NCBI GenBank assembly: GCA_965267425.1
Contig: OZ253959.1
Location: forward strand, 3,137,836-3,161,835
Reading direction: 5' to 3'
DNA length: 24,000 nucleotides
Origin: Vicingaceae bacterium
GTDB lineage: Bacteria > Bacteroidota > Bacteroidia > Flavobacteriales_E > Vicingaceae
Position numbers and translations under genes: made by a program. A model generated the notes under the pieces. That model saw only the letters and a list, made by a program, of their open reading frames with translations. It was not told where the DNA came from and did not search any database. This document shows, in pieces, positions 3,475 through 17,791 of the stretch (positions within the stretch are counted from its first letter, which is position 1; each line of letters begins with the position of its first letter).

Positions 3475-3545
3475 GTCATTACTGGTCATTTTATTTCCAA
3501 AGGCAAAGGATTATCTTGAGCGCTATCTTGAGAGGAGGAACAGCT

Positions 3546-6500
3546 ATGTTAACTAATTTGAAAATAAGCGCACCGGGATGGACAGCAAGAATTGCTGTGG
3601 TTATTTCCTTATTTCTTATTTCTTCTTTCGCGATAGGACAATTGTCGACAGTAACAACTGCCAACTTATCCATTTGCCCGGGAGGATCAGCAAGTTTATT
3701 AACCACTCCTTCTGGTGGAACATCATATACATACTCTTGGTCACCGGCAGGTTCATTGTCCAATGCAGCCATTGCAAATCCTGTTGCCACACCTACAGTT
3801 ACTACAAAATATTTTATAACCGTTACAGATGTGCCAACATCTGCAACTTTTACTGATTCTGTCACTGTTACTGTGGCTAATGTACCTCCTGCTTTGACAA
3901 TCGTTCCGGATGTTGACACCATATGTGCTGGAGATTCTACCCAGCTTGAGGTTTTTAATTCTCCGGTATGTGGCACAGTTCCTGGATCAACTTGCATTGG
4001 CACATCAAGCACGGGAATTGTTGGAACTGGAACGTTTGGAACATCAGCACAAACGGTTAGTCCCTATTACAAAAGATATCAGGTATTTCCACTATTCACC
4101 ATTGATAACAGGAGTACCAAACATCAAATGATCTACACCAAAGACGAATTGAATGCGGTAGGAATCATTGGACAAAGAACCATTTCTGCAATTGCATATA
4201 ATGTATTAGGCGTTCCCAGTGGATTGACTCCTTACATTGATTTCACTATTAAAATGAAATGTGTTACCGCATCTGCCCTCTCAAGTACATTTGAAACAGG
4301 CATGCAAACTGTTTTTGATCCCAAATCAGTAACCGTTACCAATGGATGGAATGAACACGTTTTTGACAATTCATTTGTTTGGGATGGCACAAGTAATATT
4401 GTAGTAGAAGTCTGCTTTCAAGATGTTGCTACCACCGCTGTCTTCCAGAGTCCAACGGTGGAATGGACTAATGGTGTAGGATTTGGCGCGACAAATACCT
4501 CTACCTCAGGAAGTGCATGTGGCGCCACATTTGGATTTGCATTTGTTCCTCAATCCAGAGTAAATACCAGATTTAGGCATTGCCAAGCAACTCATTCCAG
4601 TGGATTGACATTTAGTTGGACGCCAACGGCCGGACTCAGCAGTGCAATTATCAGCAATCCTCATGCCTTTCCGGGAACATCCACCTCTTATGTGCTAACT
4701 GCCACCGATGCTGGAAATTGTGAATTTATTGATACGGCGGAAATTACTGTGGCTCCCAATTTCAATTTATCCGTAACTGCAGATACCGTATTATGTGGGG
4801 AAGACAGTATTAACTTGGTTGCCACTGATAATGCAGGTGCTGGAGCGACTTATTCATGGACCCCTGCTGCTCTTGTGGCTAACCCTAATGTGGCTTCTAC
4901 CAAAGGTTTGGTGAGTGGAAACTTTAGTTATCTGATCAGTGTCAAGTCCACAGCAGGATGTGAAAAAACAGATAGTACCGTGGTTAGTCTATATCCACCT
5001 GTAGATGTGGAAATTGTAACGCAAGATACATCCATTTGTGCCGGAGACACGTTGCAGCTCGAAAGCACAACGTTAAATGCAAATTGTTATACATCACCGG
5101 GATACGGTTGTCCTTCTCCAACTTCAAGAATTGTGGGAACAGGAGTTGGCGCTTTCAATTTTTGGACGGCGAACCCATTTAATGCAACAGCTAGCCCGTT
5201 TGTAACTTCTCCCGGACATAGAAAACAAATATTGTTTACCAAGGCTGAATTAAATGCTGCTGGCTTGGACGCCAGTACGTCCATTACAGCCATTGCGTTT
5301 GATGTAGCTTCCTTTTCTGGAACTTCAACATTTAATGGTTTTACTGTCAAAATGAATTGTACATCGCTGGATGAATTCCCTCTATTCGGTGGAGTATATG
5401 AAACAGGGTTGACAACTGTGATGAATCCAACTGCCGTGACCATCAATTCAGGATGGGTTGATCTTACATTCACCAGTGCTTTTAACTGGGATGGTGAATC
5501 AAATGTGATCATAGAAGTATGTTGGCAAAATTCAAGTTCATTGGTTACGGGGACTCAACAAGTGGTGAATTATTCCACCCTTTCCAAAAGAATGACCTTG
5601 ACCTCTTTACTAGGATTTGGTGGAGGAGTGGCCTGTGCGGCTGCACCATCAGGTAGTGGATTACAGCGCCCCAATGTAAGATTTAAGACATGCCCGGCTC
5701 CCCCGAATTTGGCATTTAGCTATCAATGGACGCCGACGGTAGGATTAACCGACGATACCATTCCTTCACCTGTCATGAATGGAACCGTGAGCAATAATTA
5801 TGTGCTTACCGTATTTGATGCTTCATCAAATTGTTCAGATACTGATACTGTGGCCATTACTGTTGCACCGAATTTCACGATGAATGCAATGAATGATACG
5901 ACTCTTTGTATTTCAGATTCCTTTAATTTGGCACTTACGCACAACTCTGGACTTCCAGTAACCTATCGATGGACTCCTTCATCCATGATGAATGACTCTA
6001 CATTGGCCGCACCTTTTGCAGTCATTGATAAGAGTTACAATGTTTCCGTTGAAGTTGAATCTAGCCTCGGGTGTATAAAAAGAGATACCGTAGACATTAC
6101 ACTATTAAATCAGGTAGCGTTTGACATTAGTTTAATTGACTCCGTGGCATGTCAAGATGATTCTTCGCAATTTGTGGTAGATCAACATTTGGATAACGGA
6201 ATTGGAGAATCTTCTTTATGCACTGCCTTTAATTCAGCCACCATTGGAACTTCGTCGTCAGCATCGTTTGCGACCAATACAACTCCTTTTTTACATATTA
6301 ATCCAAGTACAAAGAGACAGTATATCATGCGTGCCAGTGAATTAACTGCCGCAGGAATTAATTCAGGGCAATTGTCATCCATTGCCATTAATGTGTTGTT
6401 CCTCGGAAGTACCACTACGTATCAGAACTTTGTCATTAAGATAGGCACAACAACGTTGGATGCGTTTTCTACCACAGCATTCGCCAGTGGGCTTGAGACA

Positions 6501-8327
6501 GTAATGGGACCATCCAATATTGTTATTAACGCGGGCTGGAATACCTTTTTGTTTGATAACCTCTACAACTGGGATGGAAAGTCGAATCTAATCATTGAAT
6601 TGTGTTATGATAATGGTTCCGGAGGTGGATTTGGGGCTTCTTCTTCTGTATACTATTCCAATAAAACATATACATCTACTTTATTTGCAGCGGGTACGGC
6701 TCAATGTGGAATTGCGAATGGTTCTTTGACGTCTCGTAGACCGAATTTCATGTTCAATTATTGCAATTACGTACCAGGTCCATTTGCCTATTCATGGTCA
6801 CCATCCATATTCTTAAGTAATCCAAACATCAAAGAACCTGGGGTTATCCTGGATAGTACCAGAACTTATTATTTGACTTCTACAGATTTGAATTCATTGT
6901 GTACCTATGTTGATAGCATAACATTTGAAGCACGCGATTTCAACATTTTGGCATTAACAGACACTGGCTTGTGTTCAACAATGGATTACCAACTAGAAGT
7001 AGTAACGGATGCTGTAGCGCCTGTCACTTATGAATGGACTCCTTATGCATGGGTATCAGACTCCTCTATAGCAAATCCAGTTTCTGTTGTTTCCAATGGA
7101 TCATTCTATTCGGTGAGAGTTACTGACTCGGCAGGATGTGTTAAATACGATACCGTTGACGTTCAATTATATCCAAACATATTTCCAACTGTGACCCCAG
7201 ATACTACCTGGTGTGTCAATACAGATCTTGTATTGCAGGCTACTGGAGGAGACTTTTATAATTGGAGCCCTTCGAATGGTTTGAGTAATGCCAGTATTCC
7301 AAATCCAACTGCAACCGTTACCATGCCAATTACCTATGTGGTAAATATTTCGAACACATTTGGTTGTACAGGCAGTGATACGGTTACCATTGGCTTGCAT
7401 GATTCGCCTCCTTTGGACTTAGGTCCAGATACTTCATACTGTAATGGCGGTTGGTTAATTCTTGATCCAGGTGATGAATTTGTCTCATACGAATGGCAGG
7501 ACTTATCTACGGATCAAACATTTCTTGTTACCAACGACGGTAATTTCTCCGTGAAAACAGAAGATGAATTCGGGTGTTTCCAAACAGATTCTGTTGAAAT
7601 TGGTATTGCCCCTATTCCAACAACTGACTTTGATTTTAATACTGCGTTGTGCGTTGGAGATTCCTTGTATTTGGATGCTGGGAATGTTGGTTCAACGTAT
7701 TTGTGGTCGACAGGTGAAAATTCACAATTTACCCTGGTCAAAGACAGTGGACTAATCTGGGTGGAAATAGATGATGGAATTTGCGTGGGAAGAGATACCA
7801 CGAGAGTCGTATTAACTGAATACCCGGTTTCTGAACTACCAGAACTTGTAACTTATTGCAATCGCGATAATCCATTTGGTGTGGTTATCAGAGCGGGTGA
7901 TGAACAGTTTAGATATAGATGGTCCAATAACCGTGCTACCAATCAAATCATTGCTGTGGATGATGGTATGTATACGGTGAGTATTACCAAAGATTTGGTT
8001 TGTACCATTCAAGATACAGTAGAGGTTAAATACTATTGTCCGGGAACATTCTTTGTGCCAACGTCTTTTACACCTAATTCGGATGGTGTCAATGATTATT
8101 TTTCCATTGCCGGAACACAAGTAGAAGACTTCTTATTTGAAATTTATGATAGATGGGGGCATGCCATCTTACGTTCTCATGATCCTGATTTTGTGTGGGA
8201 TGGTTATTTTAAGGGAAATCCCGTCCAGGCAGGAACGTATGTTTGGAAATTAACCTATAAAGTCACGGAACTTGATGGGGTAGTTACCGAAAAACAAGAA
8301 TACGGTAACCTACATATCTTGCGCTAA
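3546..8327 (+). CDS. Giant (~1590 aa) cell-surface protein with a T9SS type B C-terminal sorting domain
   Basis: This is a long uninterrupted ORF. The ORF-track start at 3516 is a TTG. The ATG at 3546 is preceded by AGGAGG (3533-3538) and yields a signal peptide (MLTNLKISAPGWTARIAVVISLFLISSFAIGQ). The C-terminus (FFVPTSFTPNSDGVNDYFSIAG...VWDGYFKGN...GTYVWKLTY...GNLHILR) carries the type B CTD signature. The interior has three large modules plus Ig-like xYxW[ST]P / YxWSTG repeats. Confidence 0.85.
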   Translation: MLTNLKISAPGWTARIAVVISLFLISSFAIGQLSTVTTANLSICPGGSASLLTTPSGGTSYTYSWSPAGSLSNAAIANPVATPTVTTKYFITVTDVPTSATFTDSVTVTVANVPPALTIVPDVDTICAGDSTQLEVFNSPVCGTVPGSTCIGTSSTGIVGTGTFGTSAQTVSPYYKRYQVFPLFTIDNRSTKHQMIYTKDELNAVGIIGQRTISAIAYNVLGVPSGLTPYIDFTIKMKCVTASALSSTFETGMQTVFDPKSVTVTNGWNEHVFDNSFVWDGTSNIVVEVCFQDVATTAVFQSPTVEWTNGVGFGATNTSTSGSACGATFGFAFVPQSRVNTRFRHCQATHSSGLTFSWTPTAGLSSAIISNPHAFPGTSTSYVLTATDAGNCEFIDTAEITVAPNFNLSVTADTVLCGEDSINLVATDNAGAGATYSWTPAALVANPNVASTKGLVSGNFSYLISVKSTAGCEKTDSTVVSLYPPVDVEIVTQDTSICAGDTLQLESTTLNANCYTSPGYGCPSPTSRIVGTGVGAFNFWTANPFNATASPFVTSPGHRKQILFTKAELNAAGLDASTSITAIAFDVASFSGTSTFNGFTVKMNCTSLDEFPLFGGVYETGLTTVMNPTAVTINSGWVDLTFTSAFNWDGESNVIIEVCWQNSSSLVTGTQQVVNYSTLSKRMTLTSLLGFGGGVACAAAPSGSGLQRPNVRFKTCPAPPNLAFSYQWTPTVGLTDDTIPSPVMNGTVSNNYVLTVFDASSNCSDTDTVAITVAPNFTMNAMNDTTLCISDSFNLALTHNSGLPVTYRWTPSSMMNDSTLAAPFAVIDKSYNVSVEVESSLGCIKRDTVDITLLNQVAFDISLIDSVACQDDSSQFVVDQHLDNGIGESSLCTAFNSATIGTSSSASFATNTTPFLHINPSTKRQYIMRASELTAAGINSGQLSSIAINVLFLGSTTTYQNFVIKIGTTTLDAFSTTAFASGLETVMGPSNIVINAGWNTFLFDNLYNWDGKSNLIIELCYDNGSGGGFGASSSVYYSNKTYTSTLFAAGTAQCGIANGSLTSRRPNFMFNYCNYVPGPFAYSWSPSIFLSNPNIKEPGVILDSTRTYYLTSTDLNSLCTYVDSITFEARDFNILALTDTGLCSTMDYQLEVVTDAVAPVTYEWTPYAWVSDSSIANPVSVVSNGSFYSVRVTDSAGCVKYDTVDVQLYPNIFPTVTPDTTWCVNTDLVLQATGGDFYNWSPSNGLSNASIPNPTATVTMPITYVVNISNTFGCTGSDTVTIGLHDSPPLDLGPDTSYCNGGWLILDPGDEFVSYEWQDLSTDQTFLVTNDGNFSVKTEDEFGCFQTDSVEIGIAPIPTTDFDFNTALCVGDSLYLDAGNVGSTYLWSTGENSQFTLVKDSGLIWVEIDDGICVGRDTTRVVLTEYPVSELPELVTYCNRDNPFGVVIRAGDEQFRYRWSNNRATNQIIAVDDGMYTVSITKDLVCTIQDTVEVKYYCPGTFFVPTSFTPNSDGVNDYFSIAGTQVEDFLFEIYDRWGHAILRSHDPDFVWDGYFKGNPVQAGTYVWKLTYKVTELDGVVTEKQEYGNLHILR
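3918..7205 (+). repeat. Three tandem diverged protein modules inside the giant CDS: 3918-5030 (371 aa), 5031-6143 (371 aa) and 6144-7205 (~354 aa)
   Basis: The modules align by eye. Each starts with xxC[AQ][GD]D..Q[LF]. Next comes a Cys-framed ~180-205-aa domain (3969-4583, 5085-5693, 6219-6764) with conserved K[HR]Q..[YFM]T[KR].EL[NT]A[AV]G[IL], I[ST]AIA[YFI][ND]V, F[TV]IK[MI], GW[NV]...F...[FY].WDG.SN[ILV][IV][IV]E[VL]C and R.N.[RM]F..C. It is followed by two Ig-like repeats ([FY]S[WY].W[TS]P... and TY.WTP...). The similarity is at protein level only. Confidence 0.8.
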
Positions 8328-9125
8328 TTAGTCAGCGTCTAGTCCAACAGGAAATTTTTTTCTAAATGCGATGAGATCATCAATGTTAATGATGGATGTC
8401 AAAATTTGATCGGATGCTCCTTGAGAGACAATTTTATCATTTCCTTTAAAATCGATAATAGCAGAGTCGCCATTATAGTGAATGGCGTTACCGTCCATCC
8501 CTACACGATTTACCCCTACCACGAAACACTGATTTTCAATGGCACGTGCTCTCAACAGTGTTTCCCAGGCATTCTTTCTGGGTGACGGCCAGTTGGCCAC
8601 GTAGATTAACAAGTCATATAAAGCATCATATTCCTTGTTTCCCTTTTCATAGTATTCATTTCTAGACCATACCGGAAATCGCAAATCATAACAAATGAAT
8701 GGACATATTTTCCACCCATTGAAATCAACCACAACCTTTTCCTCCCCGGCAGTGTAATATTTGTCCTCATCCGCCATCCGAAACAAATGCCGCTTGTTGT
8801 ATATCTTCCTGTTCCCATCGGGATCCACCCAAATGAGCCGATTGTATACCTTGCCATTTTCAGATACCATGACACTTCCCGTAATCGCAAGATTGTATTT
8901 TTTCGACAGTGATTCCATCCAAGACCCCGTGGAATCTTCCTCTGAAGGTTCTGCCAATGCGTTCACATTCATACTAAATCCGGTGGTAAACATCTCTGGC
9001 AGCACCAAGAGATCTACATCGCTGTTAAGGGATTTAATTTTTTCTTCAAACAACTGCTTATTTTTCTGAGGATCTTCCCAGTGCAAAATGGACTGTACCG
9101 CAGCAATATGCAATTGTTTTTTCAT
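8328..9125 (-). CDS. yafV: Omega-amidase (2-oxoglutaramate amidase), nitrilase/CN-hydrolase superfamily, YafV type
   Basis: There is strong colinear similarity, from memory, to E. coli YafV: LVLPEMFTTGFSM (Glu), YNKRHLFRMADE (Lys), ICYDLRFPVWSRN (Cys), YVANWPSPR and RARAIENQCFVVGVNRVG. I place the start at M22 of the track ORF (ATG 9125-9123, MKKQLHIAAVQ). The longer ORF would overlap the upstream gene by 64 nt. Confidence 0.85.
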   Translation of the reverse strand: MKKQLHIAAVQSILHWEDPQKNKQLFEEKIKSLNSDVDLLVLPEMFTTGFSMNVNALAEPSEEDSTGSWMESLSKKYNLAITGSVMVSENGKVYNRLIWVDPDGNRKIYNKRHLFRMADEDKYYTAGEEKVVVDFNGWKICPFICYDLRFPVWSRNEYYEKGNKEYDALYDLLIYVANWPSPRKNAWETLLRARAIENQCFVVGVNRVGMDGNAIHYNGDSAIIDFKGNDKIVSQGASDQILTSIINIDDLIAFRKKFPVGLDAD

Positions 9126-10285
9126 TAAGTGACCGAATTCAAAATTTCTGCCGCTTCTTTCAACGTTTCTTTTTCCTTGGCAAAACAAAAGCGTAGAACG
9201 TGGTTTTCCACTTTACTGTGATAAAAGACAGAAACAGGAATAGCCGCAATCTTGTATTTTTTGATCAAATGCAGTGCATATTCATTGTCAGGCATATCAG
9301 AAATGGCATCGTACCTGAGTAATTGAAAATAGGTGCCTGCAGACGGTAGGATTTCAAATTTGGAGTTTTTTAATAGTCCATTGAAATAATCTCTTTTTTT
9401 CTGGTAAAATTCTCCAAGTTTCAGATAATGTGAGGATTTATCCATATAATCTGCCAAAGCATATTGTATAGGCGTATTTACTGCAAATACGATAAACTGA
9501 TGTGCTTTTCGTATTTCCTTCATGATGTTTTCTGGCGCTAGGCAATAGCCTATTTTCCACCCTGTACAATGGTAGGTCTTTCCAAATGAAGAAACCACTA
9601 TGCTTTGAGCAGCCAGTTCAGGGCTTTGCATCACACTATTGTGCTCATTGTCATCAAAAACAACATGCTCGTACACTTCATCACTCAACACAAAAATGTC
9701 CGTCCCTTTCACAATTTTTTCAAGTTCCGACAAGTCGTTCTTTGACAACACCGTTCCAGTTGGGTTATGTGGTGTATTGATGATGATCATTCTTGTTTTT
9801 TGATTGATCACTTTTTTCACCTCTTCCCAGTCAATGCAATAGTCTGGAAGTTTTAATTGTACAAAAACAGGTTTTCCGCCATTCAACTTAATGGCAGGCT
9901 CATAACAATCATAAGCAGGAGTGAATATAATAACCTCATCATCTTCATTTATCAGGGATGCGATTACCGCATAAATCGCTTGAGTAGCGCCAGCGGTTAT
10001 TGTAATCTCCTTTTCGGCATCATATTTGCAACCATAAAGTGACTTGGTCTTCTCTGCAATCTTTTTTAGCAATCCCGGATGACCCGGCATTGGAGCATAC
10101 TGATTGTGCCCCTTTTTCATGTAGTGATGGACCCGGTTGATTAAATCTTCAGGCATGTCAAAATCAGGGAATCCTTGTGAAAGGTTTAATGCCCCTGCCT
10201 TGGCAGCATGCTGGTTAATGAGCGAAAAAATACTTTGATCCGTTTGTGGTAACTTAGAACGAATCGAGCCATTATAATGAATCAT
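9125..10285 (-). CDS. PLP-dependent class I aminotransferase of the YbdL / kynurenine-glutamine transaminase type (methionine aminotransferase-like)
   Basis: It carries the N-terminal ALNLSQGFPDFDMP motif, the YAPMPGHPGL motif, NTPHNPTG, and the PLP-lysine motif SSFGKTYHCTGWKIGY. Its stop codon (9127-9125) overlaps the yafV start as TAATG. Confidence 0.85.
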   Translation of the reverse strand: MIHYNGSIRSKLPQTDQSIFSLINQHAAKAGALNLSQGFPDFDMPEDLINRVHHYMKKGHNQYAPMPGHPGLLKKIAEKTKSLYGCKYDAEKEITITAGATQAIYAVIASLINEDDEVIIFTPAYDCYEPAIKLNGGKPVFVQLKLPDYCIDWEEVKKVINQKTRMIIINTPHNPTGTVLSKNDLSELEKIVKGTDIFVLSDEVYEHVVFDDNEHNSVMQSPELAAQSIVVSSFGKTYHCTGWKIGYCLAPENIMKEIRKAHQFIVFAVNTPIQYALADYMDKSSHYLKLGEFYQKKRDYFNGLLKNSKFEILPSAGTYFQLLRYDAISDMPDNEYALHLIKKYKIAAIPVSVFYHSKVENHVLRFCFAKEKETLKEAAEILNSVT

Positions 10286-10362
10286 AGGACAGTCTCTTCA
10301 GCGCGAAGGTAAAGAATTCAATATTGTAAATATAAAAATGTATTTGGCTAACTTACCCTTTT

Positions 10363-10370
10363 TATCTTTG
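10363..10370 (+). promoter_or_regulatory. Candidate Bacteroidota -7 promoter box TAtcTTTG upstream of the DUF547 gene
   Basis: It is an exact match to the Bacteroidetes sigma-A -7 consensus TAnnTTTG, 16 nt before ATG 10386, in the 100-nt divergent intergenic region. Confidence 0.4.
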
Positions 10371-10385
10371 TGTAACCGCAGTCTT

Positions 10386-11105
10386 ATGAAGTATATACAA
10401 TTTCTTACGTTGGTGGTCTTATTTCCTGTGTTGACAATTGCTCAGGTACCATCTCATTCTCAATGGAATACATTGTTACAAGCTTGTGTTAGTCCTGATG
10501 GGCAGGTCAATTACAAAGCTTTTAAAGCCCGACAGTCTGAACTGGATAATTACCTAAAAACATTGGCTGATGCCACACCTGGAAGCAGCTGGAGTTCAAA
10601 TGATAAATTGGCCTATTGGATCAATGCGTACAATGCATTTACGGTAAAACTTATTATCGACAATTATCCTTTAAAGAGCATTATGGATTTGGAAAAAGAT
10701 GGTGTTTCTCCATGGGATAAAAAATTTATCAAAATGCATGGGAAGACGTATACATTAAACCATATTGAACATCAAATTCTGAGGAAGGATTTCAGTGAAC
10801 CTCGCATTCATTTTGCCGTGAATTGTGCTTCACAATCTTGCCCAGATTTGCTTAATCGAGCGTATACTGGGAAAAATGTTTCGGCTGAATTGGAAAAAAG
10901 TACCAAAAAATTTATCAATAATTCTCAGCACAACAAACTCGCCTCAGGTTCGGCCAAAGTGTCTAAAATATTTGAGTGGTTTAAGGAAGACTTTACCAAA
11001 AATGGTTCGGTAATTGATTTCCTTAACAAATATGCCGCAGTGAAAATAGATAAGAATGCGACCATCAGTTATTTGGATTATGACTGGTCTTTGAACGGTT
11101 ACTAG
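10386..11105 (+). CDS. Secreted DUF547 domain protein
   Basis: It has the typical DUF547 blocks YWINAYNAFTVKLIIDNYPLKSI, LNHIEHQILR and PRIHFAVNCASQSCPDL. I prefer the start at ATG 10386 (MKYIQFLTLVVLFPVLTIAQ signal peptide) because a TAtcTTTG -7 box at 10363-10370 lies inside the longer track ORF. Confidence 0.8.
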   Translation: MKYIQFLTLVVLFPVLTIAQVPSHSQWNTLLQACVSPDGQVNYKAFKARQSELDNYLKTLADATPGSSWSSNDKLAYWINAYNAFTVKLIIDNYPLKSIMDLEKDGVSPWDKKFIKMHGKTYTLNHIEHQILRKDFSEPRIHFAVNCASQSCPDLLNRAYTGKNVSAELEKSTKKFINNSQHNKLASGSAKVSKIFEWFKEDFTKNGSVIDFLNKYAAVKIDKNATISYLDYDWSLNGY

Positions 11106-11129
11106 CAATAAACTTAATAGATACGATTT

Positions 11130-11465
11130 ATGGATGATGCTTACTACAAAGCAGCCGATCTGAAAAAGTTTGGCGATATCAAGGATTTTGAACCCAATTT
11201 GGCAGATAAATTTTTTACCTATTACAATGAAGTGTTTAAAGATGGAGCGCTCACGGCAAGAGAGAAATCTTTAATTGCATTGGCGGTATCGCATACCGTT
11301 CAGTGCCCATATTGTATTGATGCTTACACTGAAGATGCGCTGCAAAGAGGAATGGAAGAAGCCGAAATGATGGAAGCTGTTCATGTTGCTGCAGCCATAA
11401 GAGGGGGTGCCTCTTTGGTTCACGGTGTTCAAATGATGGAAAAGGTGAAAAAACAAAGCATGTAA
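11130..11465 (+). CDS. AhpD/carboxymuconolactone-decarboxylase-fold CxxC protein, arsenosugar biosynthesis-associated peroxidase-like family
   Basis: It is a ~110-aa CMD-fold protein with REKSLIALAVSHTVQCPYCIDAYT (CxxC at 11304-11315). It lies immediately upstream of ArsS. This matches the family named by genomic context as arsenosugar-associated peroxidase-like (TIGR04169, accession from memory). Confidence 0.8.
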   Translation: MDDAYYKAADLKKFGDIKDFEPNLADKFFTYYNEVFKDGALTAREKSLIALAVSHTVQCPYCIDAYTEDALQRGMEEAEMMEAVHVAAAIRGGASLVHGVQMMEKVKKQSM

Positions 11466-11472
11466 TTGGAGT

Positions 11473-12534
11473 TTGGAAAAGAGTCTACATAAACAAAACA
11501 ACACAATTGCCGATCCAAAAGTTCAATTGGAACATTTGAGCAATGGCCTTTTCAAATCAGGCACATTAAACGACTTTAGGAGCACTTTGGTTGACAACAA
11601 TATTGACATGTTGAGAGCGAGCGATCCTGAAATTTTGCAAGTCAATGTGGGTTACATGTGCAATCAGGTATGCAAGCATTGCCATGTTGATGCCGGTCCG
11701 GATAGAAAAGAAATCATGTCTCGAGAAACAATGACACATTGCCTCGATGTGCTGAGACAAAATGACTCTATAAATACATTGGATCTAACGGGTGGTGCCC
11801 CGGAAATGAATCCGGATTTCAGATGGTTCGTTGAAGAATCAAGGAAAGCAAAACCAAATTTGGACATCATTGTGCGTTCCAATCTCACGATCATATTGGC
11901 CAATCCAAAGTACCATGATCTGCCTGAGTTTTTCAAAAAAAACAATATTCACGTAGTTTCTTCTTTACCGTATTATAAAGCAGCTAAAACGGATAATCAA
12001 AGAGGAAAAGGAGTCTTTTCAAAATCAATTGAAGCGTTGATTTTGTTAAACAAACAAGGATACGGAATGCCTGATAGTCAATTGCAACTGGATTTAGTAT
12101 ATAATCCTGCCGGGGCTTTTTTACCCGCTGATCAATCGCAACTTGAAGCAGAATACAAAAGAGAATTGTTCAATGAATTTGGTATACAGTTTCATTCTCT
12201 TTTTGCGTTGACCAATATTCCGGTTAATCGTTTTTTGGAATATTTAATTCGAAGTGGGAATTATGAAGATTATATGACCAAATTGGTTAATGCATTTAAT
12301 CCTGCTACAATTGAAGGCTTGATGTGTTTAAACACATTGTCCATTGACTACCAGGGATATATTTACGATTGTGACTTCAATCAAATGTTAGATCTGGGCA
12401 GTGGTTTAAAAGACAAACTTCATGTGAGTTCCGTTTCTTCTGCGGAATTGAAAGGGCGAATTGTAAAGACCAGCCAACATTGTTATGGTTGCACCGCTGG
12501 TGCCGGTTCCAGTTGTCAGGGTACTCTATCATAA
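11473..12534 (+). CDS. arsS: Arsenosugar biosynthesis radical SAM protein ArsS
   Basis: It has the radical SAM cluster motif LQVNVGYMCNQVCKHCHVDAGP (CxxxCxxC) and the family-typical Cys-rich C-terminus CYGCTAGAGSSCQGTL. The start is uncertain. I take the TTG at 11473 because the N-terminal segment before the first ATG (M46) aligns with conserved ArsS N-terminal sequence. Confidence 0.85.
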   Translation: MEKSLHKQNNTIADPKVQLEHLSNGLFKSGTLNDFRSTLVDNNIDMLRASDPEILQVNVGYMCNQVCKHCHVDAGPDRKEIMSRETMTHCLDVLRQNDSINTLDLTGGAPEMNPDFRWFVEESRKAKPNLDIIVRSNLTIILANPKYHDLPEFFKKNNIHVVSSLPYYKAAKTDNQRGKGVFSKSIEALILLNKQGYGMPDSQLQLDLVYNPAGAFLPADQSQLEAEYKRELFNEFGIQFHSLFALTNIPVNRFLEYLIRSGNYEDYMTKLVNAFNPATIEGLMCLNTLSIDYQGYIYDCDFNQMLDLGSGLKDKLHVSSVSSAELKGRIVKTSQHCYGCTAGAGSSCQGTLS

Positions 12535-13144
12535 TTCTATTTTGACAGCTTCCCTTATCATATTTGCAAAAAACCCGGTTGCCGGAAATGTGAAAACCCG
12601 GCTTGCAAAAGATATTGGAGAAGAAGAAGCTTTGAACGTTTACAAATGGTTGTTGCATTGCACTTCTTCCGCCATTGAAAATCTGAAGTTTACAAGAACC
12701 GTATATTTTGATAATCTCCCAGATAAATCTGATTTGCCCGATTTTGCTGAATTTCAATGGAGATTGCAAGAAGGTCAAGATCTTGGAGAAAAAATGAAAA
12801 ATGCCTTTCAATCAGAATTTGAGCGTGCTGAAAAAGTGATTATCATTGGAAGTGATTGTCCAGACATTACGGATGTTCATCTAACTTCAGCGCTTGACCT
12901 ACTTGACCATAACGATGCTGTCGTTGGTCCTGCTTCAGATGGAGGTTATTATTTGTTGGGGTTAAACTCGTTGCATACGACTTTATTTGATGGAATTTCA
13001 TGGAGTTCAGACGAGGTTCTGGAATTGACCATTGATAAACTGGAACAATCAGGGTTGACTTTTGCATTGTTAGAAGAGTTAACAGACATTGATACGGTTG
13101 AAGACCTTAAATCAAAAACATCAGATGTCAGAATATTTAAATAA
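12485..13144 (+). CDS. DUF2064 / TIGR04282-family glycosyltransferase-like protein (arsenosugar-associated transferase 1)
   Basis: It has the N-terminal LIIFAKNPVAGNVKTRLA and IIIGSDCPDIT motifs and GPASDGGYYLLGL, all typical of DUF2064. The only ATG (12485) overlaps arsS by 50 nt. An alternative TTG at 12542 sits just after the arsS stop and would give the family-typical short N-terminus. Confidence 0.8.
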   Translation: MVAPLVPVPVVRVLYHNSILTASLIIFAKNPVAGNVKTRLAKDIGEEEALNVYKWLLHCTSSAIENLKFTRTVYFDNLPDKSDLPDFAEFQWRLQEGQDLGEKMKNAFQSEFERAEKVIIIGSDCPDITDVHLTSALDLLDHNDAVVGPASDGGYYLLGLNSLHTTLFDGISWSSDEVLELTIDKLEQSGLTFALLEELTDIDTVEDLKSKTSDVRIFK

Positions 13145-13946
13145 TATAAATGAAAGTGCTTCATTCATTTCAGGGCAATTGAATGCGCAACCTGAAATTG
13201 GAATAATACTGGGTACTGGATTGGGAGGATTGATAGACCATATGGAAATCTCACATTCCTTGTCGTATGAAAATATCCCTCATTTTGCTCAATCTACCGT
13301 GGAATCTCATTCTGGGAAACTGCATTTTGGAACCATCCATGGCAAACAATTAATGGTCATGCAAGGTCGTTTTCATTTCTACGAAGGGTACGACATGAAA
13401 CAAATTGCTTTTCCTGTTTACGTCATGAAGGCCCTGGGTGTAAAAAAATTGATTGTCTCCAACGCTGCAGGAAATATGAATCTTGATTGGAACAAAGGAG
13501 ATTTGATGCTTATTGAAGATCACATTAACCTGTTTCCTGACAACCCGTTGAGAGGAATAAACAACGACTCCCTTGGACCTAGATTTCCTGATATGAGCGA
13601 GGCTTATAGTCGTGCCCTGGGCGAAAAGGCACTTCAACACTCAGCCAACCTCAATATAACCCTTCGTAAAGGAGTATATGTTGGTGTCTCTGGTCCAAAC
13701 CTGGAAACGGCAGCAGAATATCGCTTTCTCAGAAGAATTGGTGCTGATGCTGTGGGCATGTCAACGGTTCCGGAAATCATAGCTGCCAACCATTGTGGAT
13801 TAGAATGTCTGGCCATTTCTGTATTGACAGACGATTGTGATCCGGACAATCTTCAACCTGTGAATATTGTAGAAATACTTGAAGTGGCTGGTAAGGCCGA
13901 AAAGAAGTTATCAATCCTCATTTCAAATGTTTTAAAAGAATTGTAA
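13125..13946 (+). CDS. Purine nucleoside phosphorylase homologue (trimeric PNP-I / PunA family) with Asp at the Asn243-equivalent position
   Basis: It is colinear with human PNP / PunA blocks: GIILGTGLGGL, MVMQGRFHFYEGY, SNAAGN, GPRFPDMSEAY, GPNLETAAE and GADAVGMSTVPE. I prefer the start at ATG 13125 (MSEYLNNINESASFI), which overlaps the upstream gene by 20 nt. Confidence 0.85.
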   Translation: MSEYLNNINESASFISGQLNAQPEIGIILGTGLGGLIDHMEISHSLSYENIPHFAQSTVESHSGKLHFGTIHGKQLMVMQGRFHFYEGYDMKQIAFPVYVMKALGVKKLIVSNAAGNMNLDWNKGDLMLIEDHINLFPDNPLRGINNDSLGPRFPDMSEAYSRALGEKALQHSANLNITLRKGVYVGVSGPNLETAAEYRFLRRIGADAVGMSTVPEIIAANHCGLECLAISVLTDDCDPDNLQPVNIVEILEVAGKAEKKLSILISNVLKEL

Positions 13947-14917
13947 TGGAATCATATTTAGAAAAAACCATAGATGTATATGAACAAGCAGCCAAAACTC
14001 CTGATGTAGGGTTGTGCTGCACCACGAGTCCAATTTGGCAACTTCCGGGATTAAGCATCCCTGGAAAAATGCTCAGCATGAACTATGGTTGCGGAACTAC
14101 CGTTCACCCTAGAGATTTAGTCAATGATCCATCTATTTTATATGTTGGCGTGGGCGGTGGAATGGAGTTATTACAATTTTCATATTTCAGCCGAAAACCA
14201 TCAGGAGTGACAGGTGTTGATGTAGTGGATAAAATGTTGAAAGCAGCGGATGAAAATTTGATGAAAGCAGAAGAATCCAATGATTGGTTTCAACGGAATT
14301 TTGTGGATTTGAAAAAAGGTGATGCCACAAATTTACCTGTAGATGATGGCAGTATGGATGTTGTTGCGCAAAATTGTCTTTTTAATATTTTCAAAGACCA
14401 TGAGCTCAAAGCCGCGTTGGAAGAAACATACAGAGTGTTGAAACCTCATGGAAGGTTTGTTTCATCCGATCCAGTTTGTGAATCAGGAATTCCAGATCAC
14501 TTGAAGGAAGATGAACATTTACGTGCACTTTGTCTTAGTGGTTCCATTCCATTGGATGAATACATCAAATACATGACAGATATTGGATTTGGGACCATTG
14601 AAGTTCGGGCGCGCAGACCCTACAGAATATTGCATCCAAATCATTACGATGTTGAACAACCCATTGAGATAGAGAGTGTTGAAGTTTGTGCCATAAAAGA
14701 CCCAATGCCAGAAGATGGCCCTTGTGTATTTACCGGTAGAAGTGCCATATACGTAGGAAAAGAAGAACATTTTGACGATGGTAAAGGGCATCTACTTTTA
14801 CCCAATCAGCCAATAGCTGTTTGTGATAAAACAGCATCAAACTTACAATCTCTTGAAAGAGATGACATGTTTGTCACGCCAAGTACGTACTTTTACGATG
14901 GCGGAGGATGTTGTTAA
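13946..14917 (+). CDS. arsM: Arsenite S-adenosylmethionine methyltransferase (ArsM-like)
   Basis: It has a class I SAM-MTase core (ILYVGVGGGMEL). Cysteines sit at the spacing of the four conserved ArsM cysteines: GLCCTTSP (C24/25), NYGCG (C49), AQNCLFN (C144) and RALCLSG (C196). The start ATG overlaps the PNP stop as TAATG (13944-13948). Confidence 0.8.
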   Translation: MESYLEKTIDVYEQAAKTPDVGLCCTTSPIWQLPGLSIPGKMLSMNYGCGTTVHPRDLVNDPSILYVGVGGGMELLQFSYFSRKPSGVTGVDVVDKMLKAADENLMKAEESNDWFQRNFVDLKKGDATNLPVDDGSMDVVAQNCLFNIFKDHELKAALEETYRVLKPHGRFVSSDPVCESGIPDHLKEDEHLRALCLSGSIPLDEYIKYMTDIGFGTIEVRARRPYRILHPNHYDVEQPIEIESVEVCAIKDPMPEDGPCVFTGRSAIYVGKEEHFDDGKGHLLLPNQPIAVCDKTASNLQSLERDDMFVTPSTYFYDGGGCC

Positions 14918-14973
14918 ACCGGGAAAGCCATCCTTTTGAAATAAATATTCGTCTACTTTTAAAAAGGAAATTT

Positions 14974-17025
14974 ATGAAATACTTCTACGGTCTTATAATC
15001 CTGTTTTCTTCTGCGATTGTTTTGGGTCAAACACGTATTGATTCTTCATTTGCGTTTGGAACCAATCCGGCAAAAAAATATTCAATTTACATCCCCAGCA
15101 ATTATAATGCTGGTGTTCCAAATGAGCTCATGGTGGGATTTCACCCATTTAATGTCTCTGTTTGGGATGCAGAAGCTTGGTGTGACACGCTCATCCAATT
15201 CAGTGAATCAAACGATTTAATCTTGGTATGTCCGGATGGAGGTACGAATGGTAATATTACTGATGCCATAGATTACGGCTTTACCACTGCATTGTTGGAT
15301 TCCATGAAACTATGGTATTCCATTGATACGAATCGAATATATGCCATGGGGTTTTCAATGGGCGGAGTAGCAACTTATGAATATGGCCTTCAATTTCCGG
15401 AAGTTTTTGGAGGATATTTACCTATTGGCGCTGCCATCAATGGCACTGGTTCCTTCAGCTCTGATCTGCCAAATTCGGGACAAAAACCGTTTTATTTGGT
15501 ACATGGGGCTAATGATGCACCAAACACCCGATATTGGCCTGCAATTAATGGATTAAACGCAAATTGTGCCATAGTCAATAGCATGTTGATGACTGGTGTT
15601 GGGCATACCATTAATTTCCCTAATCGAAATCAAATTTTATCAGATGCATACCAATGGATTGATTCAGTAAATGTTACACCAAGAAGTGGAGGGTTTAACT
15701 TAATCAGTCCGATTTCCTTTTCTTCACTTGATGTGAAAGGGTTTTCTAATCTGGAAACCGTATTGACATGGGAATCAAATTCCATAGCAGATACTTGTGG
15801 CGTTATGAAATATGAATTCATGTTGGACGTTTCCAATGGATCATTTACTCCACCAATCTATACCAGATTAAGTGATAACAATGGCGAAGACACAACGCTC
15901 ACTTTTACCAATCACGAATTGGACAGCCTGTTAAATTCATTTGGTGTTCTTCCTGGAGCTTCCATCACCCTTAAATGGGCCGTTCGTTCTAATTTATTTA
16001 ATCAATGGTATGACACGGCAAAAGCTTTTATCATTACAGTAAACCGAGGAACCGTGGGTTTTAAAAGTACTGACCCTTTTGACAGTGCAAGAGAAACTTT
16101 GGTTCAAGATGCAACACTGCGTTTTGAATGGACTGCGATGAATCATTCGGCTCCTGTGACTTATGCACTTGAAATTGATTCTGTTGGTGCTGATTTTGCT
16201 TCTCCAATTGTCACCTATGTACCTGCCAATGGCGCCTTAAATAATTTCGTTGTCGCTGAACATGAACAATTATATTATGACTTTCTCATGCCCGACAATG
16301 CAGTTCAGGGAGATTCCATTATGTTGTCATGGCGGGCTGTGGCAATGGAAGGTACACATATAGAATATTCCAATCCAAGAACACTAACGCTAATAAAAGA
16401 CTCCGTTGGAGTATCCCTAAAGTTTCCACTTAGCGAATCTGAATTGATCAGCCAATCAGGTTTTGATTATTCGTTCACTTGGGACAGTGTAGGTGTTGCC
16501 AATATTACTTATGAATTTTTGATAGATACCACTCTTGCCGGATTGACAGGATCTCCCAAGTCCTACCAATCTGACAATGGAGGAAACGATGCTCAGATCT
16601 TTATTCCATATGAACGTATGGATTCTATTGCTCATCATTTTGGGATTAACTATACGGACACCTTAAAGGCCTACTGGACTGTAAAAGTTACTCACCCCAA
16701 TGGATTTGAGTATGCACTTGAACCTTTTTTGGTGTATGTTCACCGCGATGTGCCTATTGGAATTGAGCAAGTATTCACTCAGGAAAACATTGCTGTGTTT
16801 CCAAATCCTTCCAAAGATCAGGTTACACTTCAATTTGAACCCTTGAGTGAAGCGGGAATTCTAAGAATTCTTGATGCTGAAGGAAAACTCGTTTTCCTGT
16901 CGAATCTAAACAAAACTCAACAGCGTGTTGAATTGGATATTCATTCCTGGGAACCTGGTATTTATCAGGTTCAATTCCAGTCTGGAAAATCAATGATTCA
17001 CAGCCGAATAGTAAAGGTTGAGTAA
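14974..17025 (+). CDS. Secreted alpha/beta-hydrolase (carboxylesterase / PHB-depolymerase-like) with three internal ~115-aa repeats and a T9SS type A C-terminal sorting domain
   Basis: It has a signal peptide (MKYFYGLIILFSSAIVLGQ) from ATG 14974. The nucleophile elbow is GFSMGG, with a candidate Asp in HGANDA and His in GVGHT. The C-terminal ~75 aa (VFPNPSKDQVTLQF...ILDAEGKLVF...GIYQVQFQSG...SRIVKVE) show the Por/T9SS type A CTD pattern (TIGR04183-like). Confidence 0.8.
   Translation: MKYFYGLIILFSSAIVLGQTRIDSSFAFGTNPAKKYSIYIPSNYNAGVPNELMVGFHPFNVSVWDAEAWCDTLIQFSESNDLILVCPDGGTNGNITDAIDYGFTTALLDSMKLWYSIDTNRIYAMGFSMGGVATYEYGLQFPEVFGGYLPIGAAINGTGSFSSDLPNSGQKPFYLVHGANDAPNTRYWPAINGLNANCAIVNSMLMTGVGHTINFPNRNQILSDAYQWIDSVNVTPRSGGFNLISPISFSSLDVKGFSNLETVLTWESNSIADTCGVMKYEFMLDVSNGSFTPPIYTRLSDNNGEDTTLTFTNHELDSLLNSFGVLPGASITLKWAVRSNLFNQWYDTAKAFIITVNRGTVGFKSTDPFDSARETLVQDATLRFEWTAMNHSAPVTYALEIDSVGADFASPIVTYVPANGALNNFVVAEHEQLYYDFLMPDNAVQGDSIMLSWRAVAMEGTHIEYSNPRTLTLIKDSVGVSLKFPLSESELISQSGFDYSFTWDSVGVANITYEFLIDTTLAGLTGSPKSYQSDNGGNDAQIFIPYERMDSIAHHFGINYTDTLKAYWTVKVTHPNGFEYALEPFLVYVHRDVPIGIEQVFTQENIAVFPNPSKDQVTLQFEPLSEAGILRILDAEGKLVFLSNLNKTQQRVELDIHSWEPGIYQVQFQSGKSMIHSRIVKVE
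15691..16746 (+). repeat. Three tandem ~112-122-aa protein-level repeats in the hydrolase (about 15691-16056, 16057-16410, 16411-16746)
   Basis: Each unit has [FL]xW[ET/DS].. followed by [YT]Y[EA][FL].[LI]D, then a loosely conserved middle, then L.[WS][AR/TV][VK]. The repeats are diverged and were recognised by eye only. Confidence 0.55.
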
Positions 17026-17361
17026 CTATAAAATTTTATTCAGCATTAATATGAGCTCCTGTTCAAGAGGGTTGAAATCGTCATGTTCCAATTTAAAAAT
17101 TTGACGCATTTTGGCGATTACCTCTTCTTTTGACTCATACTGATCTTTAAATTTTGCAAATAGTCCTTGCAAGGTTTCAATGTGATCTATATCATTCTGC
17201 GCACTAAAGATTTCATTGATTTTATCAAATTCATCTTGTCCCAATAAGGAAACAATATGGGCTTTTTCTTTTTCAGTAATGGTGAAATCTGCTGATGCTG
17301 CATAGATCATCAGGTACGCAAGAAAATCATCATGCGTGCAGCTTTCTATCGAAAATGACAT
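17026..17361 (-). CDS. Hypothetical small acidic helical protein (possibly TerB-like fold)
   Basis: This 111-aa ORF lies 16 nt downstream of the bacilliredoxin gene on the same strand. The pattern LAYLMIYAASADFTITEKEKAHIVSLL resembles TerB/DjlA-N-type helical domains. The assignment is tentative. Confidence 0.55.
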   Translation of the reverse strand: MSFSIESCTHDDFLAYLMIYAASADFTITEKEKAHIVSLLGQDEFDKINEIFSAQNDIDHIETLQGLFAKFKDQYESKEEVIAKMRQIFKLEHDDFNPLEQELILMLNKIL

Positions 17362-17377
17362 GAGGGTAAATTAAAAG

Positions 17378-17791
17378 TTAGCAATACTCGTTAAATGCTG
17401 CTTTCAAATTATCCGATACCATGTCTGCCGTACTTCCTTCAATGTGATGACGCTCAATGAAATGAACCAACTTTCCATCTTTAAACAGCCCAATGGCGGG
17501 AGAAGATGGAGGGTAAGGCAACATGTATTTTCTTGCTTGTTCCGTAGCTTCAGTATCAACACCTGCAAATACAGTCGTCAATTTTCCTGGAACCTTATCA
17601 TTGCTAAGTGAATTTAAGACAGCTGGTCGAGCGCTGCCCGCAGCACATCCGCAAACAGAATTGACAACTACAAGTACAGTACCGTTATCCGGATTCATCA
17701 TCTCATCAACTTCTGACGCATTGGTCAATTCACTGAATCCTACTGACGTAAGCTCCTCTTTCATTGGAGCAACTAATTCTGGTGGGTACAT
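17378..17791 (-). CDS. BrxA/BrxB (YphP/YqiW, DUF1094) family bacilliredoxin
   Basis: It has the family-typical N-terminus MYPPELVAPMKEELT and the CGC redox motif VVNSVCGCAAGSARP (codons on the + strand at 17645-17653). Confidence 0.85.
   Translation of the reverse strand: MYPPELVAPMKEELTSVGFSELTNASEVDEMMNPDNGTVLVVVNSVCGCAAGSARPAVLNSLSNDKVPGKLTTVFAGVDTEATEQARKYMLPYPPSSPAIGLFKDGKLVHFIERHHIEGSTADMVSDNLKAAFNEYC

Follow-up and report, generated by a model that had tools for sequence, protein, structure and literature searches.

A natural Asp243/Ile257-type purine nucleoside phosphorylase recruited to arsenosugar operons of Bacteroidota, a candidate for the removal of adenine

We report that a gene for a purine nucleoside phosphorylase (PNP) is embedded in the arsenosugar gene cluster of a Vicingaceae bacterium, in a 24,000-nucleotide stretch of contig OZ253959.1 (positions 3,137,836 to 3,161,835 of the forward strand; this whole stretch is called the window below, and coordinates are those of the window). 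The gene lies at 13125-13946 on the + strand. Its product is a member of a PNP clade that naturally has aspartate and isoleucine at the positions of human PNP Asn243 and His257, and this clade is recruited to arsenosugar operons. We propose that the enzyme removes adenine from the product of ArsS by phosphorolysis, and put the probability of this at about one half.

Arsenosugars, the main organic arsenic species of marine algae and seafood, are dimethylarsinoyl-ribosides without adenine, and an adenine-releasing step must therefore follow ArsS in their biosynthesis. ArsM supplies dimethylarsenite, from which ArsS makes 5'-deoxy-5'-dimethylarsinoyl-adenosine (DDMAA) by adenosylation (PMC13598754, PMC8552651). 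In the searchable literature, these first two enzymes are the only arsenosugar enzymes to which a function has been assigned, and we found no assignment there for an enzyme that removes adenine from DDMAA.

The PNP gene overlaps both of its neighbours in the cluster

The PNP reading frame begins with the ATG at 13125, ends with the TAA at 13944-13946 and encodes 273 residues. Its start overlaps the stop of the preceding DUF2064 gene by 20 nt, and its stop codon has one base in common with the start codon of the following ArsM gene, the two forming the string TAATG. A longer alternative start at a TTG codon (13089) is unsupported, and homologues begin at the MSE... position. An earlier reading of this DNA, made from the letters and without database searches (the sequence-only reading), had placed a PNP homologue here and described it as operon-embedded. 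The family assignment is borne out by hidden Markov model scores above cut-off, given below, and the description is accurate because the gene overlaps both neighbours.

The surrounding cluster is made up of co-oriented genes on the + strand. Upstream of the PNP gene lie the DUF2064 gene (12485-13144; TIGR04282, 205.4 bits), annotated as an arsenosugar biosynthesis glycosyltransferase and having a CofC-like nucleotidyltransferase fold; the gene for ArsS, the radical S-adenosylmethionine (SAM) DDMAA synthase (11473-12534; TIGR04167, 434 bits; DUF3641 and Radical_SAM domains); a gene for an AhpD-like, arsenosugar-associated peroxidase-like protein (11130-11465; TIGR04169, 182.8 bits); and a DUF547 gene (10338-11105; PF04784), a recurrent member of such clusters. 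Directly downstream is the gene for an arsenosugar-type ArsM (13946-14917; NF038099, 539.5 bits). Both ArsS and ArsM score above their model cut-offs. Four of the five NCBIfam arsenosugar genes therefore surround the PNP gene on a single strand, overlapping or abutting. The fifth, the GT2 glycosyltransferase of TIGR04283, and the rhodanese of NF045521 were not found in the 24-kb window. The NCBIfam arsenosugar set itself (TIGR04167, NF038099, TIGR04169, TIGR04282 and TIGR04283) includes no PNP model.

Two further observations concern the boundaries of these genes. As listed, the DUF2064 open reading frame has its ATG 50 nt inside the end of the ArsS gene (12485-12534), and the match to TIGR04282 does not set in before residue 24, which leaves the start codon uncertain. 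A scan of positions 10000-17500 for consensus promoters and terminators gave no more matches than were seen in shuffled controls.

The protein is a PunA-type phosphorylase with two departures from the classical active site

The PNP protein matches Pfam PF01048 and exceeds the cut-offs of three PNP models: NF006054 (359.5 bits; cut-off 218), TIGR01700 (321.7 bits; cut-off 293.35) and TIGR01697 (302.3 bits; cut-off 197.1). We assign it to the PunA/PNP-I family as a predicted trimeric-type nucleoside phosphorylase, within the PunA clade of the trimeric NP-I enzymes and, more narrowly, within a subclade marked by the motif TD[DE]C-DP. The phosphate and ribose ligands are kept: T31, H62, R82, H84, Y86, F154, M212 and S213 are the equivalents of human Ser/Thr33, His64, Arg84, His86, Tyr88, Phe159, Met219 and Ser220. 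Together with human and calf PNP, the window protein has the fold, the family, the phosphate ligands, Tyr88, Phe159, Glu201 and Met219 in common.

Two positions depart from this pattern. At the site of Asn243, the residue that selects 6-oxopurines and belongs with the TIGR01700 designation "inosine and guanosine-specific", the window protein has Asp236. At the site of His257, which hydrogen-bonds the ribose 5'-OH, it has Ile248. The protein is accordingly best described as a PNP-family enzyme whose base site is predicted to be adenine-compatible and whose 5' pocket should have no need of a 5'-OH. Since Asp occupies the Asn243 site, the specificity label of TIGR01700 is doubtful for the Bacteroidota clade, and it is probably wrong or misleading for the large block of Bacteroidota PNPs with Asp.

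Membership of the MTAP family was considered and ruled out. The protein scores 81.4 bits against TIGR01694, where the cut-off is 274.85, and it retains the equivalents of Glu201, Tyr88 and Phe159; the remaining MTAP and MTIP models all score far under their cut-offs. Human MTAP has Ser178 in place of the Glu201 equivalent, Ile in place of Tyr88 and His137 in place of Phe159. The resemblance to MTAP lies in other features: Asp at the Asp220 position, a T-D-Y-D-C string reminiscent of T-D-[DE]-C, a hydrophobic residue (Ile248) at Val233 and, if our proposal is right, a 5'-substituted adenosine as substrate.

Asp236 occupies the base-specificity site and is a lineage trait

Asp236 (codon GAC, 13830-13832, +) lies 19 residues past the Glu of the GADAVGMSTVPE block (13740-13775, +), which holds the Met219 and Ser220 equivalents, in the context ...SVLTDDCDPDN. 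We aligned the window PNP with human PNP, MTAP, five solved bacterial PNPs and 120 related sequences using MAFFT; the human PNP and MTAP references are identical over their full length to PDB chains 1pf7 and 1cb0. In this alignment, human PNP Asn243 and MTAP Asp220 share a column with Asp236. HMMER alignments to PDB PNPs match the same column and are gap-free in this stretch. The sequence-only reading had put the Asp codon in exactly this register, and both kinds of alignment agree with it.

It had also held that Asp at this site governs the acceptance of 6-aminopurines, a point on which the literature concurs. In trimeric PNPs, replacement of Asn by Asp raises adenosine activity by factors in the thousands and is able to reverse specificity (PMC5074518, PMC6128611). 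The engineered human N243D and K. lactis N256D enzymes of those studies prefer adenosine and have Asp where the window PNP has it. In the window protein, the Asp is natural and lineage-wide, and it differs from human PNP further in having Ile for His257, Leu for Phe200, Ile for Val260 and Asp for Lys244, as well as in its arsenosugar operon.

The idea that this Asp is tuned for, or specific to, arsenosugar-linked copies did not hold. Asp fills the column, as part of Thr-Asp, in all 120 closest database homologues; it is there also in the primary PNP copy at each of the 80 closest metagenome loci of a PNP-anchored scan, and in each of 40 arsS-linked genome copies of full length. These homologue sets, in which Asp is universal and which include gut-type PNPs from lpxK-PNP-thiL contexts without ars genes, rule it out as a signature of linked copies. 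We read the residue as a lineage trait of the wider Bacteroidota PunA clade and not as an adaptation of the linked copies. Among solved PNPs, the three nearest to the window protein, 4lna (Spirosoma), 4m1e (Planctomyces) and 8swt, have Asp at the site, and 8swu and 4ns1 have Asn. One extra, tandem metagenome PNP copy, probably at locus L150, also has Asn at 243; L150 carries two tandem PNP genes (9174-10810 of that locus), both of the Tyr200/His257 type.

The 5' pocket is remodelled in the clade that carries the linkage

Residues around the ribose 5' position set the clade apart more sharply than does Asp236. A comparison with gut-type PNPs gave five discriminating columns (clade consensus at least 90%, gut-type consensus at least 85%): Phe200 to Leu, Cys against Gly at 245, His257 to Ile, Val260 to Ile and Phe274 to Leu. 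Three of the five, Phe200, His257 and Val260, are ribose/5'-site residues. In K. lactis PNP, Phe213, His281 and Val284 are ribose-site residues (PMC5074518), and by position these would correspond to human Phe200, His257 and Val260.

In the window protein, Leu193 stands at the human Phe200 position beside Glu194, the retained equivalent of Glu201 (13701-13706, +). Ile248 (codon ATT, 13866-13868, +) stands at the position of the 5'-OH ligand His257 of human PNP and of MTAP Val233, and Ile251 at that of human Val260. The gate loop reads D237-C238-D239-P240-D241 (13833-13847, +) and is part of the conserved, acidic TD[DE]C-DP motif of the subclade with ars linkage. These substitutions are consistent among the 52 linked copies, which were compared with 36 gut-type PNPs. 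All 52 have Asp243; all have I, L or V at 257, where 34 of the gut-type proteins have His, Leu at 200, where 33 of the gut-type proteins have Phe, and E or D at 244. At this last position the gut and Spirosoma types have Leu and human PNP has Lys, and it is the sole clade trait that does not extend to the Spirosoma/Planctomyces sister clade. On the alignment, then, residues 257, 200 and 260 with the acidic 244 appear to separate the clade that carries the linkage better than does Asp.

The direction of the change recalls MTAP. In human PNP, His257 hydrogen-bonds O5', and the preference of MTAP for 5'-deoxy and 5'-substituted nucleosides has been ascribed to a hydrophobic 5' site without hydrogen-bonding partners (PMC5147791). 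Ile248, Ile251 and Leu252 of the window protein align with MTAP Val233, Val236 and Leu237, but Phe154 stands where MTAP has His137, and Tyr86 is kept. The second acid of T-D-[DE]-C might do what Asp222 does in MTAP.

Among solved structures, 4LNA (Spirosoma linguale) and 4M1E (Planctomyces limnophilus) come nearest to the window PNP, with E-values of 1e-89 and 6e-88. Both resemble it in having Asp243, Leu200, Ile260, a hydrophobic residue at 257 and a gate motif of the form C-x-P-D; they differ in having Leu at 244 and CFPD or CLPD where the window protein has CDPD, and they belong to the sister clade. No ars linkage was seen among their metagenome relatives, which occur in YggS-DivIVA-PNP-IleRS contexts. 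Our literature search on 8SWT, 8SWU, 4LNA and 4M1E found 4M1E used as a modelling template and no functional data.

The gut Bacteroidales-type PNPs, 8SWT-like and marked by the string TDLG, are of the same family at about 50-55% identity and have Asp at the Asn243 site, but they retain His257, Phe200 and Val260. They make up 36 of the 80 metagenome PNPs, several on contigs labelled human gut metagenome. In 31 of the 36 the PNP gene is directly downstream of lpxK, and in 14 of the 36 a ThiL-like (AIRS-domain) gene comes next. Ars genes were found near none of these 36 loci.

PNP is a recurrent neighbour of arsS

We examined linkage in an ArsS-anchored sample of one genome per species (80 loci, all Bacteroidota), in which PNP genes within 10 kb of arsS were detected by tblastn and by phmmer at the level of open reading frames. 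A PNP gene was present at 43 of the 80 loci, three of these copies being cut off at the end of the locus, and at 30 of the 54 loci that have 5 kb or more to either side, counts that are not independent because the loci are phylogenetically clustered. The association with arsS, first seen by the sequence-only reading at the window alone, thus recurs widely and in many rearranged orders. When the neighbours were clustered, the ArsS family counted 80 members, AhpD 74, DUF2064 59, ArsM 42, full-length PNP 39, rhodanese NF045521 32, DUF547 30 and GT2 TIGR04283 25; the next real family reached 15. An AhpD-like protein stands beside ArsS at 77 of the 80 loci. PNP is about as constant a neighbour of arsS as ArsM is, and it and DUF547 are the only recurrent neighbour families for which there is no arsenosugar- or cluster-specific NCBIfam model.

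The arrangements are diverse. From 56 PNP-containing loci we obtained 38 distinct gene-order strings, among them A-S-R-T-P-M-U-G, A-S-T-P, A-S-P-M, A-S-P, A-S-M-P, A-S-T-G-M-P, P-A-S-R-T and one divergent form (A, AhpD; S, ArsS; R, rhodanese; T, DUF2064; P, PNP; M, ArsM; U, DUF547; G, GT2). DUF2064 is directly upstream of PNP in 41 of the 56 arrangements. Because the architectures are so varied, we argue that the linkage between PNP and ars genes is under selection.

A second, PNP-anchored sample was not chosen through arsS and consisted of metagenome loci together with look-ups of close homologues on long contigs. Of the metagenome loci with a TD[DE]C-DP PNP, 12 were linked to ars genes, 5 were unlinked with good flanks and 16 were too short to judge. 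The other PNPs gave no linked locus and 19 unlinked loci with good flanks, to be set against 12 of 17 for the subclade (Fisher p ~5e-6). Four of the six long-contig look-ups were linked (L161, L162, L168 and L169) and two were not (L163 and L170). L161 has the order CMD-ArsS-PNP-ArsM, and L162 is a syntenic relative of the window. In total, 23 PNP-anchored loci of the subclade are well flanked, and 16 of them lie beside arsenosugar genes; these loci too are phylogenetically clustered, and the linkages are not independent events.

We also inspected unusual ArsS proteins and loci. No fusion of a PNP domain to ArsS was found among ten long ArsS representatives (P0129, P0135, P0137, P0156, P0164, P0165, P0169, P0181, P0189 and P0195). 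Five of the ten are fused to ArsM, in both domain orders, and one to a CMD/AhpD domain; the other four have N-terminal extensions of 220-430 aa without a Pfam match. Locus L164 (5832-10487 of that locus) encodes a Metallophos/cupredoxin protein, a response regulator, CMD, ArsS, GT2 and DUF2064 and has no PNP-family gene; in other lineages, this metallophosphoesterase could serve as the partner instead.

The window PNP appears to be the orthologous PNP of its lineage

In a neighbour-joining tree, the TD[DE]C-DP sequences form one clade, sister to the Spirosoma/Planctomyces type, with the gut TDLG clade outside the pair. In the TD[DE]C-DP clade itself, linked and unlinked copies interleave, and all of the clade-defining residues are present in the five unlinked, well-flanked metagenome copies. 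A dedicated arsenosugar paralogue is ruled out by this interleaving of orthologues and by the identical residues of the unlinked copies. The window PNP is best regarded as the ordinary orthologous PNP of its lineage, located sometimes in the ars cluster and sometimes elsewhere. Unlinked contexts account for 7 of the 23 well-flanked loci and include GldB-PNP-NagB and OEP-PNP-GH97.

Other genes in and around the cluster

Directly downstream of ArsM, and overlapping its stop by 10 nt, a gene at 14908-17025 (+) encodes a 705-aa protein with an esterase- or PHB (polyhydroxybutyrate)-depolymerase-like N-terminal part, a SusE domain and a type IX secretion system (T9SS) sorting tail (SusE and Por_Secre_tail matches). 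This gene may be co-transcribed with the arsenosugar genes. Of the loci examined, L162 alone has a counterpart, which follows PNP there. Upstream of the cluster and divergent from it, 8328-10285 (-) encodes a methionine aminotransferase (NF006569) and a CN_hydrolase that is omega-amidase-like (NF007757), a pair resembling MtnE and MtnU of methionine salvage. We did not use this pair as evidence, because it is common only to the window and L162 and is probably lineage synteny.

Cluster content is fluid even between close relatives. DUF547, present at 30 of the 80 arsS loci, is part of the window cluster; rhodanese (32 of 80) and GT2 (25 of 80) are both missing from it. L162, the closest relative, has the rhodanese and lacks ArsM in its cluster. 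A fatty-acid-hydroxylase membrane protein (PF04116), weakly OlsE-like, lies between ArsM and DUF547 at locus L001 (13961-14842 of that locus), and it has this position at 14 other arsS loci as well (15 of 80 in all). This neighbour may be a pointer to lipid-linked arsenicals.

The left part of the window is unrelated to the PNP finding. A gene at 3516-8327 (+) encodes a repetitive, 1603-aa cell-surface protein, whose L162 counterpart has a CHU_C (T9SS type B) sorting domain. Ahead of it, the region 78-2820 encodes a T9SS type B-sorted protein and carries a PorP/SprF gene.

Discussion

We propose that the window PNP, with phosphate, would cleave DDMAA to adenine and 5-deoxy-5-dimethylarsinoyl-alpha-D-ribose-1-phosphate. 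The ordinary PNP of the lineage would have been drawn into the arsenosugar operon because it was able to act on a 5'-substituted adenosine. We infer the substrate, the product and two downstream steps from family membership, active-site residues and gene context. In the first of these steps, the adjacent CofC-like DUF2064 protein would convert the arsenoribose-1-phosphate to a nucleoside diphosphate (NDP) sugar. Such a role is suggested by the matches of DUF2064 to CofC, a 2-phospho-L-lactate guanylyltransferase (~1e-9), and to PDB entry 3cgx, a "putative nucleotide-diphospho-sugar transferase". In the second, the GT2 protein of TIGR04283, which is encoded in other clusters and not in the window, would transfer the NDP-arsenoribose with inversion to give a beta-riboside. 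The complete route, from ArsM and ArsS through a TD[DE]C-DP PNP acting as DDMAA phosphorylase and a DUF2064 protein forming NDP-arsenoribose to a beta-ribofuranoside made by TIGR04283, is a tentative scheme that we hold to be doubtful as a whole. That an inverting transferase might use the sugar-1-phosphate directly, as the sequence-only reading had supposed, is conjecture.

The candidacy of this PNP for adenine removal, which that reading had derived from Asp236, has gained from the recurrent linkage, the remodelled 5' pocket and the overlaps with both neighbours, which suggest translational coupling; the argument from Asp is weak as it was stated, and there is no dedicated paralogue. Several observations weigh against the proposal. 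No PNP gene lies within 10 kb at 37 of the 80 arsS loci, and many of the linked loci are from Flavobacteriaceae or from a few Cytophagales-like lineages. No PF01048 gene was found at two informative distant arsS loci, one of them L164, a small sample drawn from four distant ArsS representatives, two of which lie on contigs that are too short. Linked and unlinked copies interleave in the tree. Within the active site, Glu201, Tyr88 and Phe159 stay PNP-like. Finally, Asp and the remodelled 5' pocket are common to unlinked orthologues, to the Spirosoma and Planctomyces PNPs and to relatives in YggS-DivIVA-PNP-IleRS contexts. Because they are common to unlinked copies and the sister clade, these traits predate the linkage to ars genes.

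The same breadth would suit an enzyme that works off the biosynthetic path, as a general phosphorylase for adenosine, 5'-deoxyadenosine and 5'-methylthioadenosine (MTA) that is placed beside ArsS and ArsM, removes inhibitory SAM-derived nucleosides, for example 5'-deoxyadenosine released when radical SAM cleavage is abortive, and recycles adenine. That a pocket with Asp243 and a hydrophobic residue 257 is clade-wide, and occurs in Planctomycetes and in housekeeping settings too, suggests a universal substrate, for instance 5'-deoxyadenosine or MTA, and the lack of a dedicated paralogue fits with this. The MtnE/MtnU-like pair adjoins the cluster in the window, but it does so only there and in one close relative. 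The by-product of SAM-dependent methyltransferases such as ArsM is S-adenosylhomocysteine, which is no known substrate of the PNP fold. DUF2064 directly before PNP in 41 of 56 arrangements is better fitted by consecutive steps of a pathway. The hydrophobic 5' site of MTAP does go with 5'-deoxy and 5'-substituted nucleosides (PMC5147791); the ArsS reaction, however, is redox-neutral and carries the 5'-deoxyadenosyl group over into the product, so that 5'-deoxyadenosine would be a side product at most (PMC13598754). Taken together, a role in clearance or salvage of by-products seems unlikely to us.

We consider it rather improbable that the gene is an ordinary purine-salvage PNP with no part in arsenic metabolism, placed in the operon by inherited synteny or hitch-hiking in a few Bacteroidota lineages. 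The protein does pass the NCBIfam PNP equivalog cut-offs, the same orthologue occupies unrelated contexts at 7 of 23 well-flanked loci, lpxK-PNP-thiL is the setting of the gut relatives, and PNP is absent from the 37 arsS loci counted above. Yet the linkage outlasts many independent rearrangements at loci of Flavobacteriales, Cytophagales and Chitinophagales type, PNP is far more frequent beside arsS than any other housekeeping family, and the gene overlaps both of its neighbours. A quite different function would be the activation of arsenate, in which PNP arsenolysis gives ribose-1-arsenate, readily reduced by thiols, and so provides As(III) for ArsM. We think this very improbable: bacteria normally reduce arsenate with ArsC, and the remodelled base and 5' sites and the tight pairing with DUF2064 would be left unexplained. 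Proteins of thiol or redox type are indeed found in the clusters, the AhpD-like protein in the window and the rhodanese at other loci. Mammalian PNP with a dithiol can reduce arsenate in vitro, according to work cited in PMC1257606, but by the account of that article only some reports support the activity.

Phosphorolysis of DDMAA by the window PNP is the reading that we favour, and it has consequences at three levels. Adenine removal in arsenosugar biosynthesis now has a definite candidate gene, one that is conserved as a partner in these operons and whose product is of a suitable enzyme class. If the step is phosphorolytic and not hydrolytic, this would explain the source of energy for forming the glycoside. 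And if the full route is correct, these Bacteroidota would run a sugar-nucleotide pathway on an arsenic-bearing pentose.

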